In this document: in pieces, positions 586 to 51,578 of the stretch
Layout: every line of letters starts with the position of its first letter
How positions within the stretch are numbered: the first letter of the stretch is position 1
Source: a virus
Lineage: Duplodnaviria > Caudoviricetes
Virus record (IMG/VR): IMGVR_UViG_3300021399_000119
Location: 51,544-115,543 of that record
Strand: one strand, 5' to 3'
Length of the DNA: 64,000 nt
Notes under the pieces: generated by a model
Seen by the model: only the letters and a program-made list of their open reading frames with translations
Database searches by the model: none
Told to the model about the DNA's origin: nothing
Translations under genes and position numbers: made by a program

Positions 586-1099
586 TTTTATCTTCCTCGA
601 ATAACCTTTGTAGTCTTTTCATTAAAGAAGGAGATTTAAGTTGCACTTCTTTAAATTCAACATTTAAAGTTGGGTCATTTAATATCTCTAAATTTGTTAA
701 AACTCTCAGTATGGCATTAAAGTCTGAAGAATTAATACAAAATTTCATAATCGAAATAATAATTTCTTCATGAAAATCAACTCCATCAAAATTATAAGTG
801 TTTGCGAATATTAATCCTTCGAGTAAGTCTTTTAATAAGCGCACATCTTTGGTATCATAAAATAATTGAAGGATATTCTTAAATACCTCTTTGTTTTCTT
901 GATATAGACAAGATAAAAACCAAATAACAGCATTTCCAGCATTATCACTTTCACGCGAACACAAAAGCAAATTCTTAATAATATTAAAAAGAGTATTTTC
1001 ATATTGCTCTTTATCTATATATGTTTGAATAATATCTTCTTTTATGCCATCTGCATAATATACATTATCCAAATAATACTGTATATCTTTTACCTTCAT
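578..1099 (-). CDS. hypothetical alpha-helical protein
   Basis: 173-aa ORF in a tightly packed operon. Confidence 0.7.
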   Translation of the reverse strand: MKVKDIQYYLDNVYYADGIKEDIIQTYIDKEQYENTLFNIIKNLLLCSRESDNAGNAVIWFLSCLYQENKEVFKNILQLFYDTKDVRLLKDLLEGLIFANTYNFDGVDFHEEIIISIMKFCINSSDFNAILRVLTNLEILNDPTLNVEFKEVQLKSPSLMKRLQRLFEEDKNV

Positions 1100-1109
1100 T
1101 TTTATTATC

Positions 1110-19425: not shown

Positions 19426-21435
19426 CTACTTCTCATTTACTAAAGCAACTAATTTTTCCAATTCATATGAATGAATTACTTTTACGTTGTCTGATTCAGG
19501 CTTGTAATTATCATCACAAACAACATCTGCATCTGCAGGATTATTTACAACTTCTCCTCTGCACTCAAGAATTGAACCAATGTTAACTTCTAAGAAATTA
19601 GGATCTAAATATTTTTTAATATTGTCTATATTAAAATCATCAACAACCCTTGATTCATCTTCTACCATTAGATTTAAAATTATCATTTCTTTAGTATCTA
19701 AATCAATTACAAATGCCATGCATGCACGAGTATCTCCAAAAACTTTGAATTGGAGTTCAATATTTTTAGGATCCCAAGCTATAGTATTAAGATTATTTTT
19801 ATTTTGATAACCGCAATAGATCTCTCCCTGATTTAGTCTACCAGAGTATCCATGAAAAGATTGAACGATATATTTATAACCCTTGTTTTTCATTTCATCT
19901 AATTTAATATCAAAATATTCTGTTCCAGTTTTGTCCCTACAATCTCCAGAGAAAAGTATACTTTCTCCAAAAGGTTTAACGGAATAATTCCAGAAATTAA
20001 TTGTATCAATGCAAACTATTTCGCCATCTTCTTTTATACAAGAAAGTTCTGAATCAATATCAAAAACGTCTTTCCATGTAACAAAAGTTCTTATATAGTC
20101 TCCTTGACAAGCTAATCTAGAACCAGTTGGAATTACATCAATTCCTTTGCCTCCAGCTGAAGTATTAGAAGGAACGCCTAATTTATAAAATGAATCACTA
20201 ATATAAATCTTGCCTAAAGATGGGAGTTTTCGATAATATTCAAAAATCTTTTCAAGACAAACTTTGTGTAAGAACTTTATTGTTCCAGAACTTAATCTTG
20301 ACTTTCTCCATTTTGTTTCATATTCTGTTTCAACATGATGCTTAACTAAGCGGTTTTTAAAGAAAGTAAATATTCTTGGTTTTCCAGCTTCTTCTTCTAA
20401 AGAATTAACTAATTGATATAATACCATAGGATTTTTTACTTGAATCATATCAATAATTCTAATTGATTCTTCTGGATTAGCTCTAGATAATAACATTCTT
20501 AGATTACGTTCTAATAAAGAACCATTTGAAGCATAAACTTTTGCTGCTTCTAATACCTTACCTTCTTTTAATAAAGCAGTAGCCTTCTTTTGAGGAGAAT
20601 TATGAACAGCACGTGCTAATGTTTTATCATCAAGAGATCTATTAAAAGCAGTTAAAGAAAGTAATTTATTATAGTATTTTACTTGTTTTTTAGTCAAACG
20701 GCAATCTTTAGCATAATGTAAACATTCACTGAGTAATTGTGCAGATTTTGTATCCATAGCATCTGCCAAATCTTTTTTATGTTCTCCAAGCAATTTAATA
20801 GAGAGCTTTACTAAATCTTTTTTATCCAAAAAAGAAGCAAAACTAACATCATATTCTAATAAATTGAAGACATTATCTTTGCATCGAATATCCCATTCAG
20901 GATCTACGAAGCCTTGTTTATACAATTCTTTAAATTCTTCAACCTCATCATTATTAAAAGGTCTTGTATAATCACAGTAAGCTTTTGCGATATCGGCATA
21001 AATATTTACTGCTTGTTCTAAACTAATAATTTTAAATTCACGTAATTTAATTTCATCTCCTTGCTTATATTCAGGAAGATCTTTTTTAAATAATTCTACT
21101 CTATCATAAATACCTGTTCCAGTTTCTACTAAAAAATAAGATACTAATTGTTCTATTAAAAGTTCGCTTTTAGTATAATATCTTGTATCCTGAGGATTTT
21201 TATAAAAAGAATCTGGGACATTAAGAAGAAAAACATCTGATATATCTTCTACCATTTCTGGAGTTAATGCTTGTGGTTTATCTACCACAATTCCAAAATT
21301 AGATAATAAATATGCATTTAAATATGCAACTTTATTAGCATCTAAACATTTTGAATTGTTTTCAGCAAAACACTTCAAATTGCTTGCAACAAGAAAACGT
21401 CTTGTTACTAAAATTTTGTGTAAAAATGTGATCAT
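19426..21435 (-). CDS. large helical protein with C-terminal TerD-like domain
   Basis: Long alpha-helical N-terminus; C-terminal FVTW..FDIDSE..FSGD..EYFDI resembles TerD-type beta-sandwich motifs. Confidence 0.65.
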   Translation of the reverse strand: MITFLHKILVTRRFLVASNLKCFAENNSKCLDANKVAYLNAYLLSNFGIVVDKPQALTPEMVEDISDVFLLNVPDSFYKNPQDTRYYTKSELLIEQLVSYFLVETGTGIYDRVELFKKDLPEYKQGDEIKLREFKIISLEQAVNIYADIAKAYCDYTRPFNNDEVEEFKELYKQGFVDPEWDIRCKDNVFNLLEYDVSFASFLDKKDLVKLSIKLLGEHKKDLADAMDTKSAQLLSECLHYAKDCRLTKKQVKYYNKLLSLTAFNRSLDDKTLARAVHNSPQKKATALLKEGKVLEAAKVYASNGSLLERNLRMLLSRANPEESIRIIDMIQVKNPMVLYQLVNSLEEEAGKPRIFTFFKNRLVKHHVETEYETKWRKSRLSSGTIKFLHKVCLEKIFEYYRKLPSLGKIYISDSFYKLGVPSNTSAGGKGIDVIPTGSRLACQGDYIRTFVTWKDVFDIDSELSCIKEDGEIVCIDTINFWNYSVKPFGESILFSGDCRDKTGTEYFDIKLDEMKNKGYKYIVQSFHGYSGRLNQGEIYCGYQNKNNLNTIAWDPKNIELQFKVFGDTRACMAFVIDLDTKEMIILNLMVEDESRVVDDFNIDNIKKYLDPNFLEVNIGSILECRGEVVNNPADADVVCDDNYKPESDNVKVIHSYELEKLVALVNEK

Positions 21436-21483: not shown

Positions 21484-21538
21484 AGGCCCAGCTAAAATAA
21501 AAATTCCTATATTTTTGTACGAAATAAGCATGGGCTCT
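21484..21538 (-). ncRNA. novel bulged-stem RNA motif, copy A
   Basis: AGAGCCCATGCTTATTTC-...-AGCTGGGCCT; covaries with copies B and C. Confidence 0.7.
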
Positions 21539-21545
21539 GTTGTCT

Positions 21546-21604
21546 AGGCCTAACTTGGGTATTATCCGAAGAATGAAGGGTAAAATGAAATAAGTATAGG
21601 CTCT
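21546..21604 (-). ncRNA. novel bulged-stem RNA motif, copy B
   Basis: AGAGCCTATACTTATTTC-...cUUCGg...-AGTTAGGCCT. Confidence 0.7.
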
Positions 21605-21625: not shown

Positions 21626-21860
21626 GGTAAGAGGTCGCTACCCCGACGTTTGTTCTTTTTACGAATGAACGAAGTTCCGTCATCTTGCATATACGGATAA
21701 AGATTCACGATTCATTATCAGACCGCCTCTTTTTCGATGTCCGCAGACAGAAGTAACGACGCTATAACCTTAGCGTAAGAGTGTATTTAAACATAACACA
21801 CAAGTCTTTCTATTTGAATTACCAGTTCGAGGTCGAAAAGACCCCGCGGTAAGAACCGCC
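21626..21860 (-). ncRNA. putative ~235-nt structured RNA
   Basis: GC-enriched, ORF-free segment with at least five hairpins. Confidence 0.5.
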
Positions 21861-22195: not shown

Positions 22196-22224
22196 ATTAT
22201 ATCATATTAAGTAAAACATGTCAA
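22196..22224 (-). promoter_or_regulatory. sigma70-type promoter
   Basis: TTGACA-17-TATAAT with TGn. Confidence 0.85.
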
Positions 22225-27207: not shown

Positions 27208-28575
27208 CTAAAGTTTTTTCTTTTTTATAAAATTCATCAAGACATCATGGTCATTTTCAATTTGTTCGTCAATAACAGCCTTCAATAACAAATTTAAGGC
27301 TTTCCCAATTTGTTCCCCTTGCAAACCAATTTGCATCATGTCATAACCATTGACCTTTAATTTCTTAAGGGTGAAGCATTGGTCTTCATTTAGAATTTGA
27401 TCCAAGATATCATTCAATTGATTGAACTTAGAATATTGCCATGTTTTGAAAAATTTATGATCTCTTACATCAGCAAGTTTTAAAACAAACAATTTTCTTA
27501 AGCGTTGTTCGTTTCCATCAAATTTTGTTAATTTTCTTTTTACCCATTTAGTATTTACTTTTGTTGGGTCATTATGATAACGAATTAAAAGAATAATTTC
27601 TTCAATTTCTTCTTTACTATATTTTAGACGACGAAGAATGCCATAAGCAATTTCTGCACCTTTTATATCGTGATTATAAAAAGTTATTTTCTTTTTATTT
27701 TCATCATAAGCAAATGTAGATGGTTTACCAATGTCATGAAAATAAGCTGCAATTCTTAAAATATAATCTTGCATCTCTATATTTTTTACAACATTACATA
27801 AGTGTTCATATACTTCACTATTGTGATAAGAAATTTCTTTGATAGGTTCCATACATGGAATTAATTCAGGAATAATAACACTCATAATATCTTTATATTC
27901 CTTTAATAAATAAGAAAGATTATTTGAATCTGCGCATCCCATCATTTTATTAAATTCTACACGAACTCTTTCTCTGGATACTCTATCTAAAGTTTCTTTT
28001 AACTCTCTCATAGCTTTTGCTGTCTCTGTTTCAATAGAAAAACCTAATTGAGCAGAAAATCTTAAAGCTCTTAATATTCTTAAACTATCTTCTTGAAATC
28101 TATGAATCGGTGTACCGACACATTTCACAACTTTATTTTTTAGGTCTTCTAAACCTCCGTAATAATCAATCACATTACCATTTTTATCACATGCTAAAGC
28201 ATTGATAGTAAAATCTCTTCTTGCTAAATCTTCTTGTAAAGACCTAACAAAAGTAACAGAATCTGGATGACGGCCATCTGAATAGGCACCGTCTGTTCTA
28301 AAAGTAGTAATTTCTCTACCTTCTTCTCCTGTCATTACAGTTACTGTTCCATGTTGTAAACCAGTGGGAATAATTCTATATCCTTTAAATACTTCTATTG
28401 TTTCCTCTGGAGTAGCACTAGTTGTGATGTCATAGTCATTTACTGTTCTACCCAATATAGAATCTCGGACAGCTCCTCCTACAACATAAGCCTCATAACC
28501 AGCTTTTTCTAATTTTTTTAAAAGAGATATTACATCTCGTGGTAATATGATACTTTTATTTTTATTTAGCATCAT
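27208..28575 (-). CDS. cca: CCA-adding tRNA nucleotidyltransferase with HD domain
   Basis: VGGAVRD, DYDITT, EITTFR, DLARRDFTINA, EDSLRILRALRF, HDIGKP. Confidence 0.93.
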   Translation of the reverse strand: MMLNKNKSIILPRDVISLLKKLEKAGYEAYVVGGAVRDSILGRTVNDYDITTSATPEETIEVFKGYRIIPTGLQHGTVTVMTGEEGREITTFRTDGAYSDGRHPDSVTFVRSLQEDLARRDFTINALACDKNGNVIDYYGGLEDLKNKVVKCVGTPIHRFQEDSLRILRALRFSAQLGFSIETETAKAMRELKETLDRVSRERVRVEFNKMMGCADSNNLSYLLKEYKDIMSVIIPELIPCMEPIKEISYHNSEVYEHLCNVVKNIEMQDYILRIAAYFHDIGKPSTFAYDENKKKITFYNHDIKGAEIAYGILRRLKYSKEEIEEIILLIRYHNDPTKVNTKWVKRKLTKFDGNEQRLRKLFVLKLADVRDHKFFKTWQYSKFNQLNDILDQILNEDQCFTLKKLKVNGYDMMQIGLQGEQIGKALNLLLKAVIDEQIENDHDVLMNFIKKKKL

Positions 28576-28592
28576 ATTGTTATTTCCTTTTC

Positions 28593-28862
28593 TTAAAAAT
28601 TGTATTTTACGTTTTCTATATATTTGTAATTTAGTATTGTTATTTGTATTTCCACATCAGCAGAAGATGCTTGTGGGTTTTGCTTAATTATTTCTCTCAT
28701 TATGAATAGTCGGAGATCTTCGAGAAAATCCTGTATGTTAGAAGCGTTTACCTCTTTTTCCCAATCAAATACCCCATTACCAGAACCACCTGAGATAATT
28801 TTTCTGTTTTGTTTATTTATAATATCACTTAAATAAGAAAAAAAGTATAGAAATTTTTTCAT
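28593..28862 (-). CDS. hypothetical protein
   Basis: 89-aa ORF in the operon. Confidence 0.6.
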   Translation of the reverse strand: MKKFLYFFSYLSDIINKQNRKIISGGSGNGVFDWEKEVNASNIQDFLEDLRLFIMREIIKQNPQASSADVEIQITILNYKYIENVKYNF

Positions 28863-28883
28863 AATTTTACGCCTTTCCTAAGA

Positions 28884-29825
28884 TTAATAATTAATTAATT
28901 TTTCTATATATTCTCTTCCTTCGTCAACAAAACGAGGAATATTATAATCTAAAATCCATTTAGATATTTCTTTAACTTTAATTTCCTCACCTTTAAGTTC
29001 CATTTCACCATCTATTTTCTTTAAATAAAATATTGGACAAAAGTAAAAACCAAGATTGTCAAAATAAAAGTAACCTATTCTATCTTTATAAGTAATTTGA
29101 GAATTATTTTCTACAACTTGCCCATCATCTAAAAGATATTTTACATATTTAATGCAGCAAGTTCCACGCTTTTGTGGTGTTGGCAAATTACCCCAAATAA
29201 TTCCTTTTTCAAGTTCTAACTTAGCTACTAATTCTTTACAAGATTTACCTTCTAACTCTTTTTGTGAATAGTTGACCTGAGCTACTGATAAAATAGAATT
29301 TCTTTCTGCATCTTTTTGTCGCCAAAGTACACAATTAGTAACTTCTTCTTTTGGAATATTAAATACTCTGCTATCAAATAAAGCGCCTTTTCTACGAGCT
29401 CTATCATAAACTAAATCATAATTATCTGCTTCACCTTTTTCAGCAAGTTGGTCAAGATAAAATTCATTAAAGTATTTATTAAAAGCAAATGTTGCCATAG
29501 CTGCTGAAATAGAAGTCATTTTTTGAACTTCGTAATCAAACCATGCAGAAGTATCTAATTTATTATAATCAACTAATACTAATGTAATTTCATCTGATTG
29601 AGTATAACCTAACACACAACCTTGAATATTTTCACATAAATATTTCATAGTTTCTTGCATAGTTTTCATAAAAATATCATCAAATGGTTTTTTAAATCCT
29701 CTTGTAAAAGTATGGAAGGCTTTACCATCTAACCTAATAATTACAGGCATTCTACGAGTAAGCTTTGTTTTAGAGACTTCCTCATAATATGTCTTCATTC
29801 TATTTCCTAAATTATCTTTAACCAT
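28884..29825 (-). CDS. thg1: tRNA-His guanylyltransferase Thg1-like protein
   Basis: RMKTYYE, IRLDGKAFHTFT, YTQSDEI, FDSR, WRQKDAERNSI. Confidence 0.93.
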   Translation of the reverse strand: MVKDNLGNRMKTYYEEVSKTKLTRRMPVIIRLDGKAFHTFTRGFKKPFDDIFMKTMQETMKYLCENIQGCVLGYTQSDEITLVLVDYNKLDTSAWFDYEVQKMTSISAAMATFAFNKYFNEFYLDQLAEKGEADNYDLVYDRARRKGALFDSRVFNIPKEEVTNCVLWRQKDAERNSILSVAQVNYSQKELEGKSCKELVAKLELEKGIIWGNLPTPQKRGTCCIKYVKYLLDDGQVVENNSQITYKDRIGYFYFDNLGFYFCPIFYLKKIDGEMELKGEEIKVKEISKWILDYNIPRFVDEGREYIEKLINY

Positions 29826-29861
29826 ATTTGTTTCCTTTTCTAAGATCTATTTTATATTTTA

Positions 29862-30341
29862 TTATTTTCCCCAAATATCGCGCCCATACATATAATAATC
29901 ATCTTCATCGAATTCATCTCTGATTCGAATTCCATCTCGTTTCCGAATTTCATTTCGTTTTTTCTCTTTTTCAATTGCATCATTAATTACATGCCAAGCC
30001 TCATAACCAGAAACGCATTTGTAACTCTTTCCTTGTCTTGCATACCATTCTTTTTGTTTGTCAGTTAATTCCTGAGCATAAACATATTTTTCATTGAGGT
30101 CTTCAAACTTAACTATCTCATAAGTATCTACTTCATAATCAAAGTCATCTTTATTATATACAGTAGTATAACTTCCCAAAATAACATAGTTAGGTCCAAA
30201 ACCGATGACCTTATAAGAATGATACTTACTATAAATATATTTGCAATCTGAATCATCACGACAAACCATGCAAGGAATTAGGCTCATAAGTTCTTCATAA
30301 GTTCTGTTTTTAATTACATCTTTAAAAAGAATTTTTTCCAT
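29862..30341 (-). CDS. hypothetical protein
   Basis: ORF from MEKIL. Confidence 0.7.
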   Translation of the reverse strand: MEKILFKDVIKNRTYEELMSLIPCMVCRDDSDCKYIYSKYHSYKVIGFGPNYVILGSYTTVYNKDDFDYEVDTYEIVKFEDLNEKYVYAQELTDKQKEWYARQGKSYKCVSGYEAWHVINDAIEKEKKRNEIRKRDGIRIRDEFDEDDYYMYGRDIWGK

Positions 30342-31047
30342 TTTTTTCTCCTGATTTAAGATTTTTTTCAAAGTTTTTTAATATTTCAGAATTATAATTT
30401 TCTGGTTCATAATTAATTATAGCAGCTTGTCCATAAGCTTCGTAATTTTTAATTCTACCACAAATTGTGCAATATTGCATTGTTTCAATAACGCCAGCTT
30501 CATCATGATAATTTTTAGAAACAAGATGTTTATCACAGTTATGAAACGGATTTATTTCAAGTGGCATAGTTTTTGTTAGAAGACTTCTTGTACTTGTTTT
30601 ATTTAAAATCTTTCCTTTACTTTTAGCTTCTTCAAGCTCTTTTTTAATCGTGTATCTTTCTAACCAACCATATTTAATATATTCACAAGTAATTCGCACA
30701 ATATTTGCATGCCACTTAAAAATAGTCTTTATACTTTCATTTTCACATTCTGCAAATGTGTTTATTTTTTTCTTATTTACTTTAAGATAGTCATCCACAA
30801 TTGCCCCTGTATATAAATCGACAATGATTTGCGAATTACAAGTAATACCAGCTAATTCAGGTAGGATTGGATTATCTTGATGATTTAAATCTTTTGTATA
30901 TAAAGCATAGAAAGGATTATCTGAGCGATTATATCTATTGTACTTAAGTATATTTTGGAAATATCTATCAATCATTTTTGGACAAGGAGCAGTTATATTA
31001 CTTTTCCCTGTATCAATACCCATTCCTCTTTTTCTTTTCTTTCCCAT
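30322..31047 (-). CDS. hypothetical protein with C-terminal CxxC
   Basis: 241-aa ORF; C.H...CTICG. Confidence 0.7.
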   Translation of the reverse strand: MGKKRKRGMGIDTGKSNITAPCPKMIDRYFQNILKYNRYNRSDNPFYALYTKDLNHQDNPILPELAGITCNSQIIVDLYTGAIVDDYLKVNKKKINTFAECENESIKTIFKWHANIVRITCEYIKYGWLERYTIKKELEEAKSKGKILNKTSTRSLLTKTMPLEINPFHNCDKHLVSKNYHDEAGVIETMQYCTICGRIKNYEAYGQAAIINYEPENYNSEILKNFEKNLKSGEKNGKNSF

Positions 31048-31072
31048 AATTATATACCTTTCTTAAAAATTT

Positions 31073-31429
31073 CTAACTAATTGACCAAGCGCATTTATAT
31101 CGACAACAGTCTTCTAATTCTTGTGCTATTTGTGGCGATATTTTTTCAACTTCTTTCCACTTAGTTTTTAAAAAAGTATAAACTTCTTTTGTTTCTTTTG
31201 ATGTGAATTTTCCATAAGGATTATTAGCCCACTTCATAAAAACTTTTGGAGTTCCTTCTTTAAATTCATATTTAAGTGGCTTTTCCATAAAATATTCTGA
31301 CATAGTGCATTCTGAAGCGGGTTTCCTTTGTGTAGTCATTGTGCCACCAAATAATTCTACTATTTTTTTCATTTCATCATTAAATCTAGGATAACTAGCT
31401 GAACCGCAAAAAATAAAATCCATTCCCAT
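31073..31429 (-). CDS. hypothetical protein
   Basis: 118-aa ORF; GMDF...GSASYPRF. Confidence 0.7.
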   Translation of the reverse strand: MGMDFIFCGSASYPRFNDEMKKIVELFGGTMTTQRKPASECTMSEYFMEKPLKYEFKEGTPKVFMKWANNPYGKFTSKETKEVYTFLKTKWKEVEKISPQIAQELEDCCRYKCAWSIS

Positions 31430-31444
31430 AATTATATACCTTTC

Positions 31445-32470
31445 TTATAATTCAAATTTTTCGTCTTTGAATTCGCCGTTAATAATTCTCTTATTAACTG
31501 ACATTACCCATTCTTCAATTGCCTTCATATTTGGCTTTTCAGGTAATTTTGAACTTTCATAAGCTTCATTCATTCTTTTATCTAATGAATCAACCATATC
31601 ATAAAATTCTTTAGTCATATTACCATTTTCGTCCATATACTTACCATTTCTAATATCCATTAATAAATCGTGTTCTTTTTCACGATAAGTATGAACTTCA
31701 CCAGTTTCTAACATTTCAATACACATTAATAATAATCTGACAAGATGCATAGCATGTTTATTCAAATGTGCGTCATCTTTCTTTCTATTTCTATTTAATA
31801 ATTCTTTATAGTTTCTTGTTGTATTAGAAACTGTTGAGTAGAAATCTTCAAATTCTCCGCTTTCAATATCAATATCTAACTTAAATCTTAATTTGCCAGC
31901 CTCGTCAACATAAGCAAAAGCAGGATTGATGTCTGTATTATGTTGATTATTAAAAGTAGTTAATGCGCTTTGCAAAGAAATAGAAATATGTTCATTTTTT
32001 TCTTTTTCAGGATAATTATCACGAGCTAAAGCATTTTGTAATCTTTTTAAATTAGCTTTTGCGTAACCGCCAAATGTATATTTGCATCTCTTACTTAAAA
32101 ATAAATCTTTATGATCTAATAATTCTTGCCCTAATTTAGAAACATATAAATATTGGTCAGGATTTAAACCAATAATTTCAACAATATTAGGATTGTTTTG
32201 CATCAATAATTGAATCATTTTATTAAAAGCAAAAACAGTAGTATCAGTCTTTTCATTAATAAATTGTTCAAACTTTTGATAACCAATTAATTCCTCTGGC
32301 TTTTCAATAGCAATACCTCTAATATCTAAATCAGAAGTTGGTACATTTGTTCCATACGCATGCGATCCACCCAACCCCAATAATATAATATTATTACCAA
32401 GATGTTCGTTTTCCCATAAAAATTTATATTCAGGTTTCTTTAATTCTTGCTTGTATGTATCTATTGACAT
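31445..32470 (-). CDS. Pol-beta-family nucleotidyltransferase (Nuc-transf/RlaP type)
   Basis: GGSHAYGTNVPTSDLDIRG, NPNIVE, KHAMHLVRLL. Confidence 0.88.
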   Translation of the reverse strand: MSIDTYKQELKKPEYKFLWENEHLGNNIILLGLGGSHAYGTNVPTSDLDIRGIAIEKPEELIGYQKFEQFINEKTDTTVFAFNKMIQLLMQNNPNIVEIIGLNPDQYLYVSKLGQELLDHKDLFLSKRCKYTFGGYAKANLKRLQNALARDNYPEKEKNEHISISLQSALTTFNNQHNTDINPAFAYVDEAGKLRFKLDIDIESGEFEDFYSTVSNTTRNYKELLNRNRKKDDAHLNKHAMHLVRLLLMCIEMLETGEVHTYREKEHDLLMDIRNGKYMDENGNMTKEFYDMVDSLDKRMNEAYESSKLPEKPNMKAIEEWVMSVNKRIINGEFKDEKFEL

Positions 32471-32886
32471 TATTTCTTCTGTCCTTTCTCTAGAATAGTT
32501 ACTTCTGCCATATTATCCATAAGATGTTCTAATTGCCAAGATTTCCACGCCGATTCAAGAGAACTTCTAGTGTACTCTTTAACGTCATCTAATTTAAATA
32601 CAGCTCCTATAAAAGAAATAGCGAGAAGACCTATGACTCCATCTGACATGAAAAAATCTATATAAGTATCTCCAAATTCTTTTTGAAAATCAACTAATGT
32701 ATCAGGCAGCTGTTTTTGATTCTCTATAACTTGTGTAACAAATTTTTCTTTTGCATCTTGAGTTAATATAAGTATTCCTGTATCTAAAATTTCTTTTTGA
32801 AAAATATCCAATACTTTTTTACTAAATTCTTCTGCAACATATTCTAAATAATTGTGGTTGTATTTAAGTGGTTTCATAATTACCAA
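32470..32886 (-). CDS. hypothetical protein
   Basis: 138-aa coupled ORF. Confidence 0.65.
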   Translation of the reverse strand: MVIMKPLKYNHNYLEYVAEEFSKKVLDIFQKEILDTGILILTQDAKEKFVTQVIENQKQLPDTLVDFQKEFGDTYIDFFMSDGVIGLLAISFIGAVFKLDDVKEYTRSSLESAWKSWQLEHLMDNMAEVTILEKGQKK

Positions 32887-33722
32887 TCGCTTTCGTTAAA
32901 ATTATTATAATTATATAAAGTAAACTGATCGTTCATTTTTGCAATTTTGTCTTTTATACCAAAAGAGTAATAAGACACTCCCTCTTGAGTTAAACGTTGC
33001 CATGTGGGGATTTCATAACAAGGATTATAATATATTTTATTAAAATATCTAGTATAATCTAAATCTGGATATTCTTCTATAATTTTATCTAATACGGCTA
33101 ATGTCCATTGTACATCACTTAAAGCATCATGGTCTTGCTCTTGAGATGCAGACACTACTCCTAATCTATGAGCTACATCTTCTAACTTATATTGAGAAAA
33201 ATATGCCTTATTAAGAGAACGATTATATCCGTATTTAATATAACTTGGAATTGATCCATAAATATCTAAAAATATACCCATAACGTCTACTAATTGAATA
33301 GATTCAAAAGGCAATCCACATCTTTTGTAAGCTTCTTTTAAAGTTCTTACGTCGTATGCAATATTATAACCAATAATTAGCCCATCTGTAAAACCATATT
33401 GAACTAATTCACATTCACTAATTCTTTGGTCTTTATATTCTGGACTTTGCAAGTGATCTTTTGTAACTCCTGTTAAATCTGTAATAGAAAAGAATTTATC
33501 TTTAGTTTGAATCATATCCGTTTCAGGATTATATTGCCCCTGATTTACATATTTAGACAGCTCTGTTAAATTATGTTGTTCATCATAACGTAAAGCCCCC
33601 ACTTGAATAGGCATCCCAACATTTCCATCTTTAGAGCTTGAAGTTTCAAAATCTAAAATAGCAAAAGGTTTTCCCTCTAGTTTAAAAGCTTTTATTACTT
33701 TTTCTGCACTAATTGTTTTCAT
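32880..33722 (-). CDS. DEDDh 3'-5' exonuclease
   Basis: LDFETS, YNIAYD, HDALSD. Confidence 0.88.
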   Translation of the reverse strand: MKTISAEKVIKAFKLEGKPFAILDFETSSSKDGNVGMPIQVGALRYDEQHNLTELSKYVNQGQYNPETDMIQTKDKFFSITDLTGVTKDHLQSPEYKDQRISECELVQYGFTDGLIIGYNIAYDVRTLKEAYKRCGLPFESIQLVDVMGIFLDIYGSIPSYIKYGYNRSLNKAYFSQYKLEDVAHRLGVVSASQEQDHDALSDVQWTLAVLDKIIEEYPDLDYTRYFNKIYYNPCYEIPTWQRLTQEGVSYYSFGIKDKIAKMNDQFTLYNYNNFNESDW

Positions 33723-34786
33723 TTATTAATTTGCTCACTTTCTGTTCCACAAGCTTCTTTATCTATCTTGTTGAACTCAATTAAATCATGCATCAACACA
33801 TCACCAAAAGTGTTTAACGCTTTTCTTATAGCTTTTTCAGTATTCCAATCGAATGGTCTCATATGATAATTCACATAAGCCAATACTCGAAGTATTTCAT
33901 GTACCTCCAAATCTTTTTGAGGAATTAGTTCTAAATGAGTTAATAACTCATAAGTTCCTACCTCAGCATGACTGTAATAAATAGCTATACCGCTATCATT
34001 ATAACTTTTTGTATAATATTTGCCCCAATCATGCACAATAGCCGCAACAGGCATCCAACGTTGTCCATAAAAATTTTGTATTCTTTCAGAAACTAATTGT
34101 TGACAAGCAACCATATGGAAACCTAAAGTGTATTTATGGTGAGGATTTTCTTGATTAAAATTAATCATTTTGAACATTAACGCTGCATAATCCTTTGCAT
34201 TGTGTTTTATTTGCACTATAGGATTAAAAGTAATTCCATTAATAATTATAATTCTAGTAAAACCCTCTTCACTAAAAGGAATACAAAATTTTTTTCTATA
34301 CGAATAAACAACTTCTTCTGGAATAATTTTCCCTGTTTTTTCTGCTCTATCTTTAACACGTTGTAGACACACATCAAAAGGAGTTGCCATAATAACTGCA
34401 GTTACAACATAAGTTAAATTTGGATAAATTTTTTCCCATTTCTTTATATGATTAAATGTTTCTGCTCTATCTTTAATTGTGATGTTAGTATTATCTAAGA
34501 TCACAGGCCTATTTTCTTCTCTTCCAAAATAAATGTCCATAATCAAATTATCAAGGTCTTGATAAAAACGTTTAAAAATTTGATTATTATCTTCTTCAGG
34601 AAAACGAACTCTATAGTCATCTGCACTAAAATACCAACTTGGAGTCATTTTTGCATAAGTACTTTTCCCGCTTCCTTGAAGACCGACCATCATAAATAAA
34701 TCAATTATTTCAGGACCATTTGTTGGTCTTCCAAATTCATCTACTATTTTTGAACCTTTAAACATACTTATTCTTCTCCTCCCCAA
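33719..34786 (-). CDS. polynucleotide kinase (P-loop) fused to HD phosphohydrolase
   Basis: GLQGSGKST, SADDYR, LDNTN; C-terminal NPHH...HDWGK...HAEVG...YHM. Confidence 0.88.
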   Translation of the reverse strand: MGRRRISMFKGSKIVDEFGRPTNGPEIIDLFMMVGLQGSGKSTYAKMTPSWYFSADDYRVRFPEEDNNQIFKRFYQDLDNLIMDIYFGREENRPVILDNTNITIKDRAETFNHIKKWEKIYPNLTYVVTAVIMATPFDVCLQRVKDRAEKTGKIIPEEVVYSYRKKFCIPFSEEGFTRIIIINGITFNPIVQIKHNAKDYAALMFKMINFNQENPHHKYTLGFHMVACQQLVSERIQNFYGQRWMPVAAIVHDWGKYYTKSYNDSGIAIYYSHAEVGTYELLTHLELIPQKDLEVHEILRVLAYVNYHMRPFDWNTEKAIRKALNTFGDVLMHDLIEFNKIDKEACGTESEQINK

Positions 34787-36090
34787 GAATTGATATTGTT
34801 ATAAATATCAGGGTCAATTTGAGACATTTTGGTATATTGATAAACCCCTTTGCCACGATCTCTTTTTAAGAAATTATTAGGTTTTCCTAAATAAACATTT
34901 CTAACAGCCCCTTTAAGATTATTAGGAACGCTATTTTCTACCCAAATCATGAAATCTTTTCTTTCTCCTTTTGGAGCCATTTCATAATATTCTTGAGTCA
35001 TTTTTTGATTAAATTTTTCATAATCATAAATAATGGCAGCAATTTTTTGGATATCAGCTTTAAAAGTTTCTGGAACTTTTGCTAATAAATCATCATATAC
35101 CCCATCTGCAATGGCACGAATTAATACATTAGGAGCACTTAATTTACTAATTATTTTATGAACTTTGACATAATCGTCTGTTTTTAATTTAAATAAATGT
35201 CCATCAATATTAATAACAAAACCTTCCATCTCATCAGATTTTTTTGTTTTTATGATTTCCATAACTTCGTCTAAAGAACCTTTAAATACAGAGGTTACTT
35301 TAATCTTTTTTACTTGTGCAAGACTACGTAAAACTGCATAAGATGCTAAGATGCCAGTTTCATTATATCTTAATCCTATTAAGTACAATCCTTCTTCTGC
35401 TTTTGAATATTTTACAACAATACGATTATCTACTGAAATATACTCAAACATGCAAGTATATTCACGAAATTCTTTTACAAATTCACGCAAATTAGCATTT
35501 TCAGGTGCATAGAATACTTTTTTAACATCTCTTAATACAGTAGCTTGTTCATCAGAATCATCTAAAGAGCCACTTGTGGTGATAAAAAATTCGTTTTCTC
35601 CAATATATCTAGCAATACAAATTGATCCATCAAGTTTATTACTGAATTCAATATTTACAGCTTTTTCCATTAATCTTTTAACAACGTCCCAGCTTGTAGA
35701 TTCTAATTCTCCAACATTAAAGAATTTGTCAAAAGGACAAGTAATAATGGTCTCTTTTTTCACATCAATAGTAATACTTCTGCATGATTGTAAAAAACCA
35801 TCCCACGCATTCCATAGTTGGTCTGTAGTTGTCATTCCTTTTTCCTCTGCTAAATCGCTTAAAACAGCTAAGTTGCCGTATTTAAATAATACGGCTGTTT
35901 TATATTGTTTTATAATTAAGAATGGACGAACATCAGACCAAAAAGAATCTTGGGTTTTTTCAATCCACTTGTCAACACAAGTTTTATATCCTGTTGCATC
36001 ATAAATATCTTTAGTTGGACCAACTGCAGATATATAAGATTCTTTTAATCTCATTATTTCCCTGAACACTGGGTTCCATGTAAAATCCAT
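34768..36090 (-). CDS. T4 Rnl1-like RNA ligase
   Basis: PFDKFFN, KLDGS (motif I), FEY, EGFV, FKLK. Confidence 0.9.
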   Translation of the reverse strand: MDFTWNPVFREIMRLKESYISAVGPTKDIYDATGYKTCVDKWIEKTQDSFWSDVRPFLIIKQYKTAVLFKYGNLAVLSDLAEEKGMTTTDQLWNAWDGFLQSCRSITIDVKKETIITCPFDKFFNVGELESTSWDVVKRLMEKAVNIEFSNKLDGSICIARYIGENEFFITTSGSLDDSDEQATVLRDVKKVFYAPENANLREFVKEFREYTCMFEYISVDNRIVVKYSKAEEGLYLIGLRYNETGILASYAVLRSLAQVKKIKVTSVFKGSLDEVMEIIKTKKSDEMEGFVINIDGHLFKLKTDDYVKVHKIISKLSAPNVLIRAIADGVYDDLLAKVPETFKADIQKIAAIIYDYEKFNQKMTQEYYEMAPKGERKDFMIWVENSVPNNLKGAVRNVYLGKPNNFLKRDRGKGVYQYTKMSQIDPDIYNNINSWGGEE

Positions 36091-46586: not shown

Positions 46587-46662
<76 letters not shown>

Positions 46663-48333: not shown

Positions 48334-48339
48334 AAAAAA

Positions 48340-48940
48340 GAATCCCAGCATCTCATATGTATCCCGAAATTCTTGTCAGAAATATTCTAATTAAATTATC
48401 TCGCAAGCTAATTTATTATATATTTCCCGAACTACACTTTCGTGTATCCACTTCAGCGACGCATCGCTTAGTGTCTTAAAACATAATACTTTAAGGTAAG
48501 AGTAGAGTCAATTAAGACTCTTCCCGTTTCATAGTTTTTGTTCCATTTAATTAGCGTTGAAAACATTACTCTCACATAAACCCTTTCTCAACTTTTATAA
48601 AACTTACCTCCACTCGCTAATAGGATTGTGCACTCTAGCTAAACGAGTGTTAAAGTATTACAACAAAGATTTTTTCAAAACTCATCATCTAACGATAATG
48701 TTGATGGATAATCTTCAACCTGCTTCACTTCCCTCTTCGAGACGCACTGTTAAAGTAATCGAAGTCTTTGATTACACATCTACGGAATACGGTCTCCCGC
48801 AACCGCATCTATAATAATAGTATAGACTAATTTTACTTGCAACCTATTATTTAGTCAAGGCGACTTACAATAATTTCGTTACTGCGCCATTTCTTCTATT
48901 ACCACAGCTTCCCAAGAATATTTCTATTCAATTTAGACCG
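48340..48940 (-). ncRNA. large structured RNA, ROOL-like
   Basis: ~550-600 nt between tRNAs; long-range stems 48378-48388/48915-48925 and 48484-48494/48650-48660; size and context match ROOL, family unverified. Confidence 0.55.
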
Positions 48941-49717: not shown

Positions 49718-49792
49718 TGGTGGAGGTGGCTGGAATCGAACCAACATTGTACAGGCGGTACCACTTCCTGACCTTTGCCAAAATTCACCCCC
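49718..49792 (-). ncRNA. tmRNA tRNA-like-domain-like mini RNA (Ala acceptor)
   Basis: GGGGGTG/CACCTCC-ACCA with G3:U70; T-arm TTCGATT; no D-stem or canonical anticodon arm. Confidence 0.6.
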
Positions 49793-49873: not shown

Positions 49874-50136
49874 AGAGACCTCGGGTCCGAAGAACACCGA
49901 AGTATGATCCTGCAGATTTAGCCTCATCTGCAAAAGCCTCAGTTCTTTTCAAACCTGAACACTGATAAAACGGTTATATCGCTTAGTATGCCATGCGCAT
50001 CTGTCGATCAATTAACCAATATTTGATCCAAGCTAAGCTAGACTGTTTACACCTAACCTCCGACACAGACAACTGGTAGCATTTCGTTTGCTCACGCTTA
50101 TCTTTCTTGGTTAGAGGCATAAGAACCATTCCTCTT
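49874..50136 (-). ncRNA. putative ~260-nt structured RNA
   Basis: Multiple hairpins filling the tRNA-Ala to tRNA-Ile interval. Confidence 0.45.
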
Positions 50137-50137
50137 A

Positions 50138-50213: not shown

Positions 50214-50219
50214 AGAAAA

Positions 50220-50655
50220 AGCAAAGCCATGATTCGGCTACAATAAATAAGAGTCCTTTCAGATTTCTTCGGTACCCGCGAGCTCTTTCAAACTGCAAGG
50301 CATTCCTTCTATCTTCTTCATTCTTTTTATTTAAAGTCCCTACTACACTCTTTGCCACCGTTCACATTTCACATTTCGCCTGCTGATACAGGTCGTGCTA
50401 CTAGGATTTAAACGTAGTAATGAAGAATGTCTTCGCCTCAAGTATTGGTTCAATATATACTATATCAGTAGTAGTATATCTAAGCTGCCTTCAGTTGCAG
50501 CATCACATCCCCAGTTATTAGCCAGGTCTCTACCACTTTGTGCACCTAATGTTGTTGGGTAGTGGCACCCACCTCAACCTACCGACTCTTCCAGAACTCT
50601 CAACATTAGCGTATAAGTCCATCATCTACATACGTAGGCCTTCTTTACAGAGGAA
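50220..50655 (-). ncRNA. putative ~430-nt structured RNA
   Basis: Stems 50314-50322/50419-50427 and 50546-50554/50601-50609; hairpin 50454-50479. Confidence 0.5.
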
Positions 50656-50658
50656 TTT

Positions 50659-50733: not shown

Positions 50734-50743
50734 ATATGCTTTT

Positions 50744-50772
50744 ATTATATCTTATTATAAAAACTTTGTCAA
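50744..50772 (-). promoter_or_regulatory. sigma70-type promoter for the tRNA array
   Basis: TTGACA-17-TATAAT just 5' of tRNA-Pro. Confidence 0.85.
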
Positions 50773-50794
50773 GCTTTTTTTGATATTTTTTTAA

Positions 50795-51145
50795 ACAGCG
50801 AGCACAACCTCGCTAGCAGAGCCTAACTCTGGAGTTCCCCCAACTTTTGTTTCACAGCCACTAATAAGGTATTTAAGCGCTTAAATACATTAATTAGTAT
50901 CGGGGTGGTGGACCCGTGAACCCAGAGCCCTAAGGTATTCTGAGTATGATCATATGGATGCAAGGCCCGTTACCAAAACCCATTAGAATAAAATATTCTA
51001 ATGCGACCCGTTGAGTCGATCTACCTGACGTACGGATTTTCTTGCTACTCTGGGTGGTTATAGCTATTGTCCAAAGTATAATTACAGGTTTTTTCGCCAT
51101 GATAATCGAGTTCGAAGCTACAACCTGACTCATTTCATGGAGTGG
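50795..51145 (-). ncRNA. putative ~350-nt structured RNA
   Basis: acccagag/ctctgggt long-range stem; 20-bp palindrome 50869-50888; hairpin 50981-51003. Confidence 0.45.
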
Positions 51146-51150
51146 AATTG

Positions 51151-51319: not shown

Positions 51320-51426
51320 ATGGGGGAGTACGGTTTAACTGCTTACTTATACTCCATAAGTGTCTTATGTTCCGTTGCATCCAGAGTTTCGCTGGAACTG
51401 TTTTGGCCTTCAACAGCTCTATTATA

Positions 51427-51487
51427 AGGCCTAGCTAAAAATTGATTACAAGTCAATTGCTTCCCAGCAGAAATAAGCATAGGCTCT
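51427..51487 (-). ncRNA. novel bulged-stem RNA motif, copy C, with tRNA-Thr anticodon-arm mimic
   Basis: AGAGCCTATGCTTATTTC-TGCTgggaAGCA-ATTGActtgtaaTCAAT-TTTT-AGCTAGGCCT. Confidence 0.75.
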
Positions 51488-51492
51488 ATTTA

Positions 51493-51578
51493 TGGTGGGC
51501 AGAGAAGGAGTTGCACCTCCGTTGTTTCTATGTGGCGGATTTACAGTCCGCTGCCCTCGCTACTAGGCATACCTACCC
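51493..51578 (-). tRNA. tRNA-Tyr(GTA)
   Basis: Loop CTGTAAA; variable arm; T-loop TGCAACT; CCA. Confidence 0.9.

Follow-up and report, generated by a model that had tools for sequence, protein, structure and literature searches.

What is an element that displays the anticodon arm of a threonine tRNA doing inside a phage tRNA array, when it is itself not a tRNA? The question is raised by a stretch of 64,000 nucleotides (nt), hereafter the window, which forms the right-hand 64 kb of the 115.5-kb virus record IMGVR_UViG_3300021399_000119 (Duplodnaviria; Caudoviricetes), a record estimated to be 71% complete. The element, referred to as copy C, lies within an array of tRNA genes at approximately 46.5–51.8 kb (ARAGORN and Rfam), in a part of the window in which all genes are carried by the minus strand. 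A reading made from the letters alone (the sequence-only reading) had proposed that copy C consists of a conserved bulged stem holding a tRNA-Thr(UGU)-like anticodon arm as cargo, and that it acts as a protein-tethered decoy or sensor for anticodon nucleases. Our analysis revealed that copy C is very probably a real structured RNA, a member of a family whose constant part we call the handle, and that its cargo is probably a mimic of the lower half of a tRNA maintained under selection. The parts of copy C and the two tRNA genes relevant to it are as follows.

51428–51486, minus strand: copy C, the whole 59-nt handle RNA element (delimited from sequence, relatives and fold)
51470–51486, minus strand: 5' handle strand GAGCCUAUGCUUAUUUC, comprising G1, bulged A2, five covarying bases, bulged U8, R9-C10-U11 and the single-stranded UAUUUC
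51458–51469, minus strand: 4-bp hairpin UGCU-GGGA-AGCA with a GGGA loop, the counterpart of the shortened D-arm-like hairpin of class-ii relatives (see below)
51441–51457, minus strand: anticodon-arm mimic AUUGA-CUUGUAA-UCAAU, a 5-bp stem with a 7-nt loop, Thr UGU
51436–51440, minus strand: linker UUUUA, the final A of which is an A in all 80 paired elements of the family
51428–51435, minus strand: 3' handle strand GCUAGGCC
51496–51578, minus strand: tRNA-Tyr(GUA), directly upstream of copy C (Rfam, 43.9 bits; missed by ARAGORN)
46587–46662, minus strand: phage tRNA-Thr(UGU), whose arm copy C resembles (ARAGORN and Rfam), reading AGCA-ACUGA-CUUGUAA-UCAGU

The element is present where the sequence-only reading had placed it (51427–51487), although that interval is one base too long at each end. 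The three-way structure described above is exactly the unconstrained minimum-free-energy fold of copy C. The hairpin adjoining the arm, which had been called a GNRA hairpin, does exist, but is better read as the shortened D-arm-like hairpin of the family, since the relatives carry GCUC-AAUA-GAGC and similar hairpins at the same position. As had been claimed, there is no T arm or CCA end: neither these nor a tRNA were detected in 51428–51486 by ARAGORN or Rfam (E up to 5), and copy C lacks the acceptor stem, T arm and 3' CCA/discriminator of the tRNA (RF00005) cloverleaf. It begins 6 nt past the CCA of tRNA-Tyr, with tRNA-Trp 108 nt downstream, and no separate promoter or terminator was found in its flanks. 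The 108-nt spacer between copy C and tRNA-Trp (51320–51427, minus strand) folds into four hairpins (−20.3 kcal/mol, z = −1.0) and matches no known family.

The resemblance to tRNA-Thr was also recovered by a repeat finder, which paired 46622–46640 with 51443–51461 at 18 of 19 identical positions (family D12); by our own arithmetic, about 3e-5 such matches would be expected by chance in the window. The two arms differ at two bases, which together make a single compensatory change of a C:G to a U:A pair. The arm of copy C has everything that defines a canonical tRNA anticodon arm, i.e. a 5-bp stem, a 7-nt loop, U33 and a purine at position 37 (A37).

Two further copies of the handle RNA are present in the window, about 30 kb from copy C.

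21547–21603, minus strand: copy A, with cargo lacking a clear hairpin
21485–21537, minus strand: copy B, ending 49 nt upstream of a gene for a 669-aa protein

In their stems, these copies are distinguished from copy C by two compensatory changes. Elsewhere in the genome, beyond the window, there is a fourth ACTTATTTC site; it falls within coding sequence and does not represent a copy. A first search of IMG/VR with an exact 16-mer of the 5' strand matched 72 stretches, approximately two thirds of which had a matching 3' strand; many of them came from contigs of 140–237 kb holding several copies. An unbiased anchor was then built only from bases outside the variable helix (GA.....U.CUUAUUUC), and the partner strand was sought within 220 nt. 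A fully complementary 3' strand was found for 80 of the 87 unique anchors, as against 9 of 1740 (0.5%) for shuffled stems and 0 of 87 when the search was directed upstream. Double compensatory changes were observed at six of the eight handle pairs, and 30 covarying stem variants were distinguished.

The handle defined in this way (5' strand GAGCCYAURCUUAUUUC) opens with a G1:C pair and the bulged A2; next come a helix of five covarying pairs, a pyrimidine bulge, another three pairs and finally six conserved single-stranded bases (UAUUUC). The A preceding the 3' strand in the paired elements is paired by RNAalifold with U11 (an invariant U11:A); the later handle scans required this A and so are no test of its conservation. 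All copies are located on the coding or tRNA strand and some contain G:U pairs, which fits an element acting at the RNA level. Altogether, 104 unique elements (variants included) were collected from phage contigs of approximately 15–240 kb and from metagenome bins of gut Clostridia, with 4–8 copies per complete relative, and the handle tolerates cargoes of 20 to 150 nt. An alignment of ten class-ii elements (MAFFT and RNAalifold) recovered the handle only, because the arms were misaligned; the covariation of the arms was therefore read directly from the sequences. The handle stem is a conserved, covarying module that defines a real RNA family with interchangeable cargo, in agreement with the sequence-only reading. 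Rfam 15 holds no family for it (whole window at the gathering threshold, both loci at permissive E-values), and neither the handle RNA nor the 669-aa protein is described in the literature searched or represented by a database family.

Five classes of cargo can be distinguished: (i) single AU-rich hairpins of 20–35 nt, (ii) a shortened D-arm-like hairpin followed by an arm with a 5-bp stem and a 7-nt loop, which includes copy C, (iii) circularly permuted tRNA bodies of approximately 87–118 nt, arranged in the order 3' part of the anticodon arm, variable loop, T arm, closed acceptor stem, D arm and 5' part of the anticodon arm, (iv) minihelices of a T arm with a closed acceptor stem, and (v) tRNA bodies of normal order in which the handle replaces the acceptor stem. 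The homologous cargoes had been expected to keep a 7-nt anticodon-like loop, and they do: a Y-U-NNN-R-N loop on a stem of at least 4 bp is present in 23 of the 48 short cargoes, 11 times as many as in shuffled cargo (2.0 ± 1.35; at most 8 in any of 500 shuffles). On 5-bp stems, loops of 7 nt were the most clearly enriched (25 observed versus 9.2 expected; shuffle maximum 17), while the excess of 5-nt loops was marginal (18 versus 10.2; maximum 17). The commonest loop, CUUUUAA (Lys UUU), occurs on seven different stems, which shows a loop held constant while its stem covaries; tRNA-Lys accounts for only 17 of the 359 true tRNA calls in the same DNA. Among the 12 class-ii elements there are eight of Lys UUU type (one reading CAUUUAA), two of Ser GCU type, one with a GCA loop and one of Thr UGU type (copy C). 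In addition, loops of the types Thr UGU, Asn GUU, Lys UUU, Arg UCU and Ser GCU occur in the permuted bodies with a split stem. When the class-ii and split-stem elements were read by hand, 18 of their 19 loops were seen to end in U36-A37-A38. The class-ii layout recurs in contigs whose homologues of the 669-aa protein are only 39–54% identical to that of the window.

Some permuted cargoes are more elaborate. In two nested handles (L048:10895–11072 and L006, approximately 1029–1100, minus strand) the permuted tRNA body ends in ACCA, and a second, complete handle, itself carrying a simple hairpin as cargo, lies within the loop that closes the acceptor stem of this body. The permuted cargo at L047:968–1090 combines an acceptor stem containing G3:U70 with discriminator A and an encoded CCA plus 6-nt spacer; cleavage by RNase P would turn it into a two-piece molecule, possibly one that accepts alanine, reminiscent of two-piece transfer-messenger RNA (tmRNA).

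Comparison with the class-ii relatives also bears on the origin of copy C. Its arm stem (AUUGA/UCAAU), handle variant and trailing UUAUAAU are identical in the Lys-type elements of L006, L029 and L048, and the sole difference within the arm is U35 to G35, i.e. one anticodon position. On account of these identities, copy C is more plausibly the orthologue of a conserved Lys(UUU)-type class-ii element that appears to have turned Thr-type; a fresh copy of tRNA-Thr is less likely, and gene conversion from tRNA-Thr is possible. Two or three genes for tRNA-Lys are present in each of the relatives that have Lys-type elements. With the tRNA-Thr(UGU) of its own phage copy C shares 18 of 19 arm bases, and with the tRNA-Thr(UGU) and tRNA-Lys(UUU) of the phage clade a canonical stem and loop, but it is without a T arm, normal acceptor stem and CCA, and its D arm is cut to 4 bp and a tetraloop.

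The handle RNA is accompanied by one protein gene, situated directly downstream of copies A and B.

19426–21435, minus strand: 669-aa protein, the presumed partner, with a helical N-terminal part and a TerD fold in residues 444–606
22196–22224, minus strand: consensus sigma-70-type promoter (12/12 matches plus a TG extension), upstream of a 99-aa open reading frame (ORF), copies A and B and the 669-aa gene

In the AlphaFold model of this protein (mean per-residue confidence, pLDDT, 76), an N-terminal part made of helices is followed by a beta domain at the C terminus. The TerD-like character that had been claimed for it was borne out by structure: residues 444–606 superimpose on 2qz7_B with Z 12.9 (root-mean-square deviation 2.4 over 147 residues), and Foldseek gave a probability of 1.00 to TerD structures. 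No Pfam family, TerD (PF02342) included, matches the protein of the window, and among 34 homologues only three gave TerD matches, all weak (best E 0.005). PHROGs returned a weak match to a family of unknown function and nothing else, and searches of PDB sequences with the protein and its profile gave no match. Hundreds of homologues exist. Among GenBank phages, the locus had no counterpart at the DNA level, and the protein gave just two weak matches, both confined to residues 392–654. For the N-terminal 420 residues, the model of which is only moderate (predicted TM-score, pTM, 0.48), the best match (Z 6.2) was to generic helical repeats. Sequence and profile searches, homologues included, detected no TROVE signal, and no Ro60 chain was among the best approximately 50 Foldseek and VIA matches of the full and N-terminal models. 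In the ESM Atlas, residues 1–420 matched actinobacterial proteins annotated as 'putative TerD family' and MXAN_6230/SCO0854 RING-domain proteins (TM 0.69 over approximately 388 residues); judging from these models, the helical-plus-TerD architecture may extend well beyond phages. Between the 99-aa ORF and copy A there is an ORF-free, GC-richer stretch (21626–21860, minus strand) with two terminator-like hairpins and no Rfam family.

As had been anticipated, the gene for this protein is tightly linked to the handle. We fetched 36 loci through homologues of the protein (21 from phages and 15 from gut metagenome bins), and in 34 of them a handle copy is located within 4 kb of the gene, usually just upstream. 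In 19 of the 21 phage loci, one to four same-strand copies precede the start codon by approximately 50–700 nt, the closest being usually no more than 200 nt away, and further copies often directly follow the stop codon. The two apparent exceptions, L088 and L093, encode the most divergent proteins (39–43% identity) and carry variant handles: all 13 of their copies (8 and 5, respectively) share the concerted variant CUUACUUC. The gut bins (Clostridia, Christensenellaceae, Lachnospiraceae and others) have an upstream handle in 13 of 15 cases, a downstream one only in one case and none in one, and in those of L100–L112 most copies have a bulged C and a UC/GA pair. Such lineage-specific variants are consistent with co-evolution of handle and protein. 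In contrast to the handle, none of the thirteen protein genes flanking the 669-aa gene in the window is a conserved neighbour; only a metallophosphoesterase gene recurs, in 4 of the 21 phage loci. The pairing of handle and protein gene, together with the handle variant that tracks the lineage, is our main argument for a particle, from which we infer that the handle RNA, on balance, more likely than not forms one with the 669-aa protein.

The particle had also been connected with a tRNA-repair operon, and the genes in question are indeed present.

27208–36090, minus strand: tRNA-repair gene set, downstream of a gene for a RecD2-like helicase (Pfam)

The set is complete and encodes a CCA-adding enzyme with an HD domain, a Thg1-like protein, RlaP, an RNase T-like exonuclease, an AAA_33 kinase and an Rnl1-type ligase; the phage is therefore equipped against tRNA damage. 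The proposed link found no support. The cluster is located approximately 6 kb from copies A and B and 15–24 kb from copy C, and the genes flanking the 669-aa gene are unconserved (the repair genes themselves were not searched for near the homologues); the cluster is linked to the handle loci neither physically nor phylogenetically.

How might such an RNA work? In the reading that we prefer, copy C would be a stand-alone small RNA of approximately 59 nt, probably excised from the His-Glu-Tyr...Trp-Ser tRNA transcript by the same enzymes as the tRNAs around it. The class-ii elements occupy tRNA-sized slots, 2–13 nt from the flanking tRNAs, and would therefore be released by the ordinary maturation of tRNA ends. 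The handle is the constant part and would be the binding site of the helical-plus-TerD-fold protein. The cargo, a shortened D stem with a full anticodon arm, imitates the lower half of a tRNA, presenting a Thr(UGU) loop in copy C and a Lys(UUU) loop in relatives in the context U36-A-A-U-C-A41. The particle would then display this loop to whichever factor ordinarily recognises those tRNAs, most likely a host anticodon nuclease, and the RNA would serve as bait or decoy, or as a reporter of attack, alongside the spare tRNAs and repair enzymes of the phage. Taken as a complete chain, from a trans-acting handle RNA in a TerD-protein particle to a Thr/Lys anticodon arm shown to a factor that recognises anticodons, for which a host nuclease is the most plausible candidate, this proposal is tentative and falls somewhat short of being probable; action on an anticodon nuclease, considered by itself, we regard as possible but rather doubtful.

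The context of such a role would be tRNA-targeting host immunity. Variants of phage T5 tRNAs neutralise PARIS (PMC11464382, PMC12409363), and they share with the handle cargoes the phage-encoded Lys(UUU), Thr(UGU) or Asn(GUU) anticodon arms. They are, however, complete, functional and cleavage-resistant tRNAs, whereas copy C is no tRNA and keeps a cleavable UAAUCA context. The PARIS nuclease AriB requires U36AAUC|A41 (PMC12409363), and UAAUCA is found exactly in copy C and its three Lys-type orthologues. The fit of AriB to the loop set of the handle cargoes is circumstantial.

Several observations weigh against the proposal. The fold energy of copy C is ordinary for its composition (z = −0.65), and the energies of copies A to C, each taken singly, are not significant; the evidence for the structure of copy C is consequently comparative rather than thermodynamic. 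The counted elements are partly orthologues, and the family statistics therefore overstate their independence. Among the short cargoes there are many whose loop is not of Lys type (UUUGGGA, CUGCAAA) or which, like that of copy A, form no clear hairpin, and several Lys-type mimics are without the UAAUCA context. The same context is present in the phage's own tRNA-Thr, so that neither the mimic nor the real tRNA is obviously the better target. In addition, the AriB data come from E. coli (PMC12409363), and the hosts here differ, appearing to be gut Clostridia-like. Finally, a complete 230-kb phage (G006, IMGVR_UViG_3300028591_000080) has a single handle (L038:680–743, minus strand), beside a tRNA, and no detectable homologue of the protein.

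Of the competing explanations, the one that survives best, although we consider it unlikely, is a quality-control or repair particle similar to that of Ro60 and Y RNA. The handle would again bind the TerD-domain protein, with no decoy role, and the tRNA-like cargo would tether tRNA-processing, modification or repair enzymes or gate the protein's own tRNA-binding site, a role of the latter kind having been proposed for YrlA with Rsr. YrlA has a terminal helix with a bulged base and a tRNA-like module, is encoded as one of several RNAs per genome beside a large helical protein, often near RNA-repair genes, and is found in phages too (Chen et al. 2014, PMC4201824; PMC7824862). The handle RNAs are alike in the following respects: their ends form a helix with a bulged pyrimidine (U8, or C8 in the Clostridia bins), which is the topology of a Y RNA, their tRNA-like domain is modular, and they occur several to a genome beside one large helical protein in phages with RNA-repair genes. 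Some of them are simple and others tRNA-like, as are YrlA and YrlB (PMC4201824), and among jumbo phages there are known cases of TROVE proteins with a tRNA-like RNA as partner (PMC7824862). Moreover, cargoes of approximately 90 nt from relatives match the Rfam YrlA model at 31–43 bits (E 3e-6 to 5e-3), below its threshold of 69.

The likeness is nevertheless limited. The YrlA match covers only the T arm, closed acceptor stem and D arm, leaving the Ro-binding stems of the model unmatched, and the copies in the window do not match YrlA at E up to 10 (A and B) or 5 (C). The Ro60-binding motif is GNCGAAN0-1G, or GGUCCGA in metazoa (PMC4201824), and the handle sequence is unrelated to it. YrlA mimics the D arm, T arm and acceptor stem but not the anticodon (PMC4201824), whereas copy C mimics the anticodon/D half and is without the T arm and closed acceptor domain that other family members possess. 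In the partner protein a TerD-fold domain stands in place of the vWA domain, no Ro60-like fold was among the best matches of its models, and a TROVE gene (PF05731) is absent from G000 and from four relatives that are 96–100% complete, the control genomes being positive. Y-RNA-like in layout, the handle element lacks four of the five features of YrlA/Y RNA (Rsr; RF02553) membership that were tested. A Ro/Y-like particle would also leave unexplained the constant Lys(UUU)-type 7-nt loop over seven stems. The repair genes carried by the phage speak for it, but their linkage is not conserved.

It is improbable that the arm is a mere relic, i.e. that handles capture or recombine with neighbouring pieces of tRNA and a stable hairpin simply fills the cargo position. 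This explanation accounts for the high heterogeneity of the cargo, with its simple hairpins, minihelices, normal and permuted tRNA bodies and nested handles, for the permuted bodies that keep an encoded ACCA and spacer, as after tandem duplication of a tRNA gene, and for the location of the elements inside tRNA arrays, where recombination with tRNA genes is easy. It does not account for the conservation of the CUUUUAA loop over covarying stems, for the excess of anticodon-type loops over shuffled cargo with its preference for 7 nt, or for the recurrence of the class-ii layout beside distant protein homologues.

A cis-acting element is somewhat less probable still. The handle could be an autoregulatory operator near the 669-aa gene, or punctuation for processing or stability in tRNA arrays. 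Mimicry of an anticodon arm in a leader is an established regulatory device: the operator of the E. coli thrS mRNA mimics the anticodon arm of tRNA-Thr and is bound by ThrRS. Like copy C, it is a non-tRNA RNA that displays a tRNA-Thr-like anticodon arm to an arm-reading protein; it is, however, the cis-acting leader of a synthetase gene, while copy C stands in a tRNA array on a handle shared by approximately 100 other cargoes. The position of copies 50–200 nt upstream of the start codon in most loci, the consensus promoter upstream in the window and the lack of a separate promoter or terminator around copy C all speak for control in cis. Against this, copy C is 30 kb away from the protein gene, many copies follow the gene or occupy tRNA slots where there is no coding sequence on which they could act, and elaborate tRNA-body cargoes are needless for punctuation.

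That the element is a tRNA precursor or minimal tRNA, either T-armless with the handle as acceptor stem or cut at a bulge-helix-bulge-like signal and rejoined by the Rnl1-type ligase and kinase, is very improbable: the tRNA-sized slots, the permuted bodies with ACCA, spacer and G3:U70 acceptor stem, the ligase, kinase and CCA-adding enzyme of the phage and the layout of copy C (stem, D-like arm, anticodon arm and short replacement loop), identical to the one known from T-armless mitochondrial tRNAs, are in its favour, but a single handle joins its cargo at three tRNA positions (acceptor, anticodon stem and minihelix base), also carries simple hairpins from which no tRNA could ever be made, contains two bulges and a 6-nt spacer but no CCA, and breaks the anticodon stem or loop at varying points, with no consistent 7-nt loop that could be rebuilt across elements.

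Other candidates were rejected. Repeats of a type III antitoxin (ToxI-like), which would be near-identical short units in tandem placed immediately before the gene of a small endoribonuclease toxin, do not fit, as the copies share the handle only and their cargo is wholly different, and the 669-aa protein has no Pfam match (PADLOC was not searched). The self-cleaving ribozyme and retron readings were dropped, there being no model match or matching partner gene.

The tRNA array that holds copy C has further contents, all on the minus strand. A 75-nt tRNA-like sequence at 49718–49792, not called by ARAGORN, matches only the ends of the Rfam tmRNA model (28.6 bits, threshold 47) and looks like the tRNA-like domain of a tmRNA without the message part. 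The segment 48949–49030, belonging to repeat families, has a tRNA-like 3' end (T arm and acceptor strand) with no ARAGORN or Rfam tRNA call. Four long stretches (48334–48940, 49874–50137, 50214–50657 and 50735–51149) are seemingly non-coding on the sense strand, although a 67-aa ORF overlaps 50930–51133; they match no Rfam family at E up to 5 and may be large structured RNAs.

Cleavage of tRNA is emerging as a main route of bacterial immunity, and the known phage answers to it are spare tRNAs and healing or sealing enzymes. If the preferred reading were true, a protein-held RNA that shows nothing of a tRNA but the targeted anticodon arm would add a third kind of response, that of a molecular decoy or sentinel. 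It is conceivable, though we consider it unlikely, that large gut phages and some mobile DNA of Clostridia encode a hitherto unknown RNA-protein particle in which a helical-plus-TerD-fold protein grips a universal handle and the exchangeable cargo shows parts of tRNAs, chiefly Lys(UUU)-, Thr(UGU)- or Asn(GUU)-type arms. Such a particle would soak up, block or report host nucleases of the PARIS-AriB or PrrC kind, as an RNA-based counter-defence next to spare tRNAs and tRNA repair. The handle itself is a compact, portable and apparently protein-specific RNA tag, and as such a natural scaffold for RNA display. An architecture like that of Y RNAs (a terminal bulged helix, a tRNA mimic and a large helical protein) exists without Ro60, which bears on the origin of such particles, and the approximately 100 sequenced variants and hundreds of protein homologues provide natural diversity for direct biochemistry.

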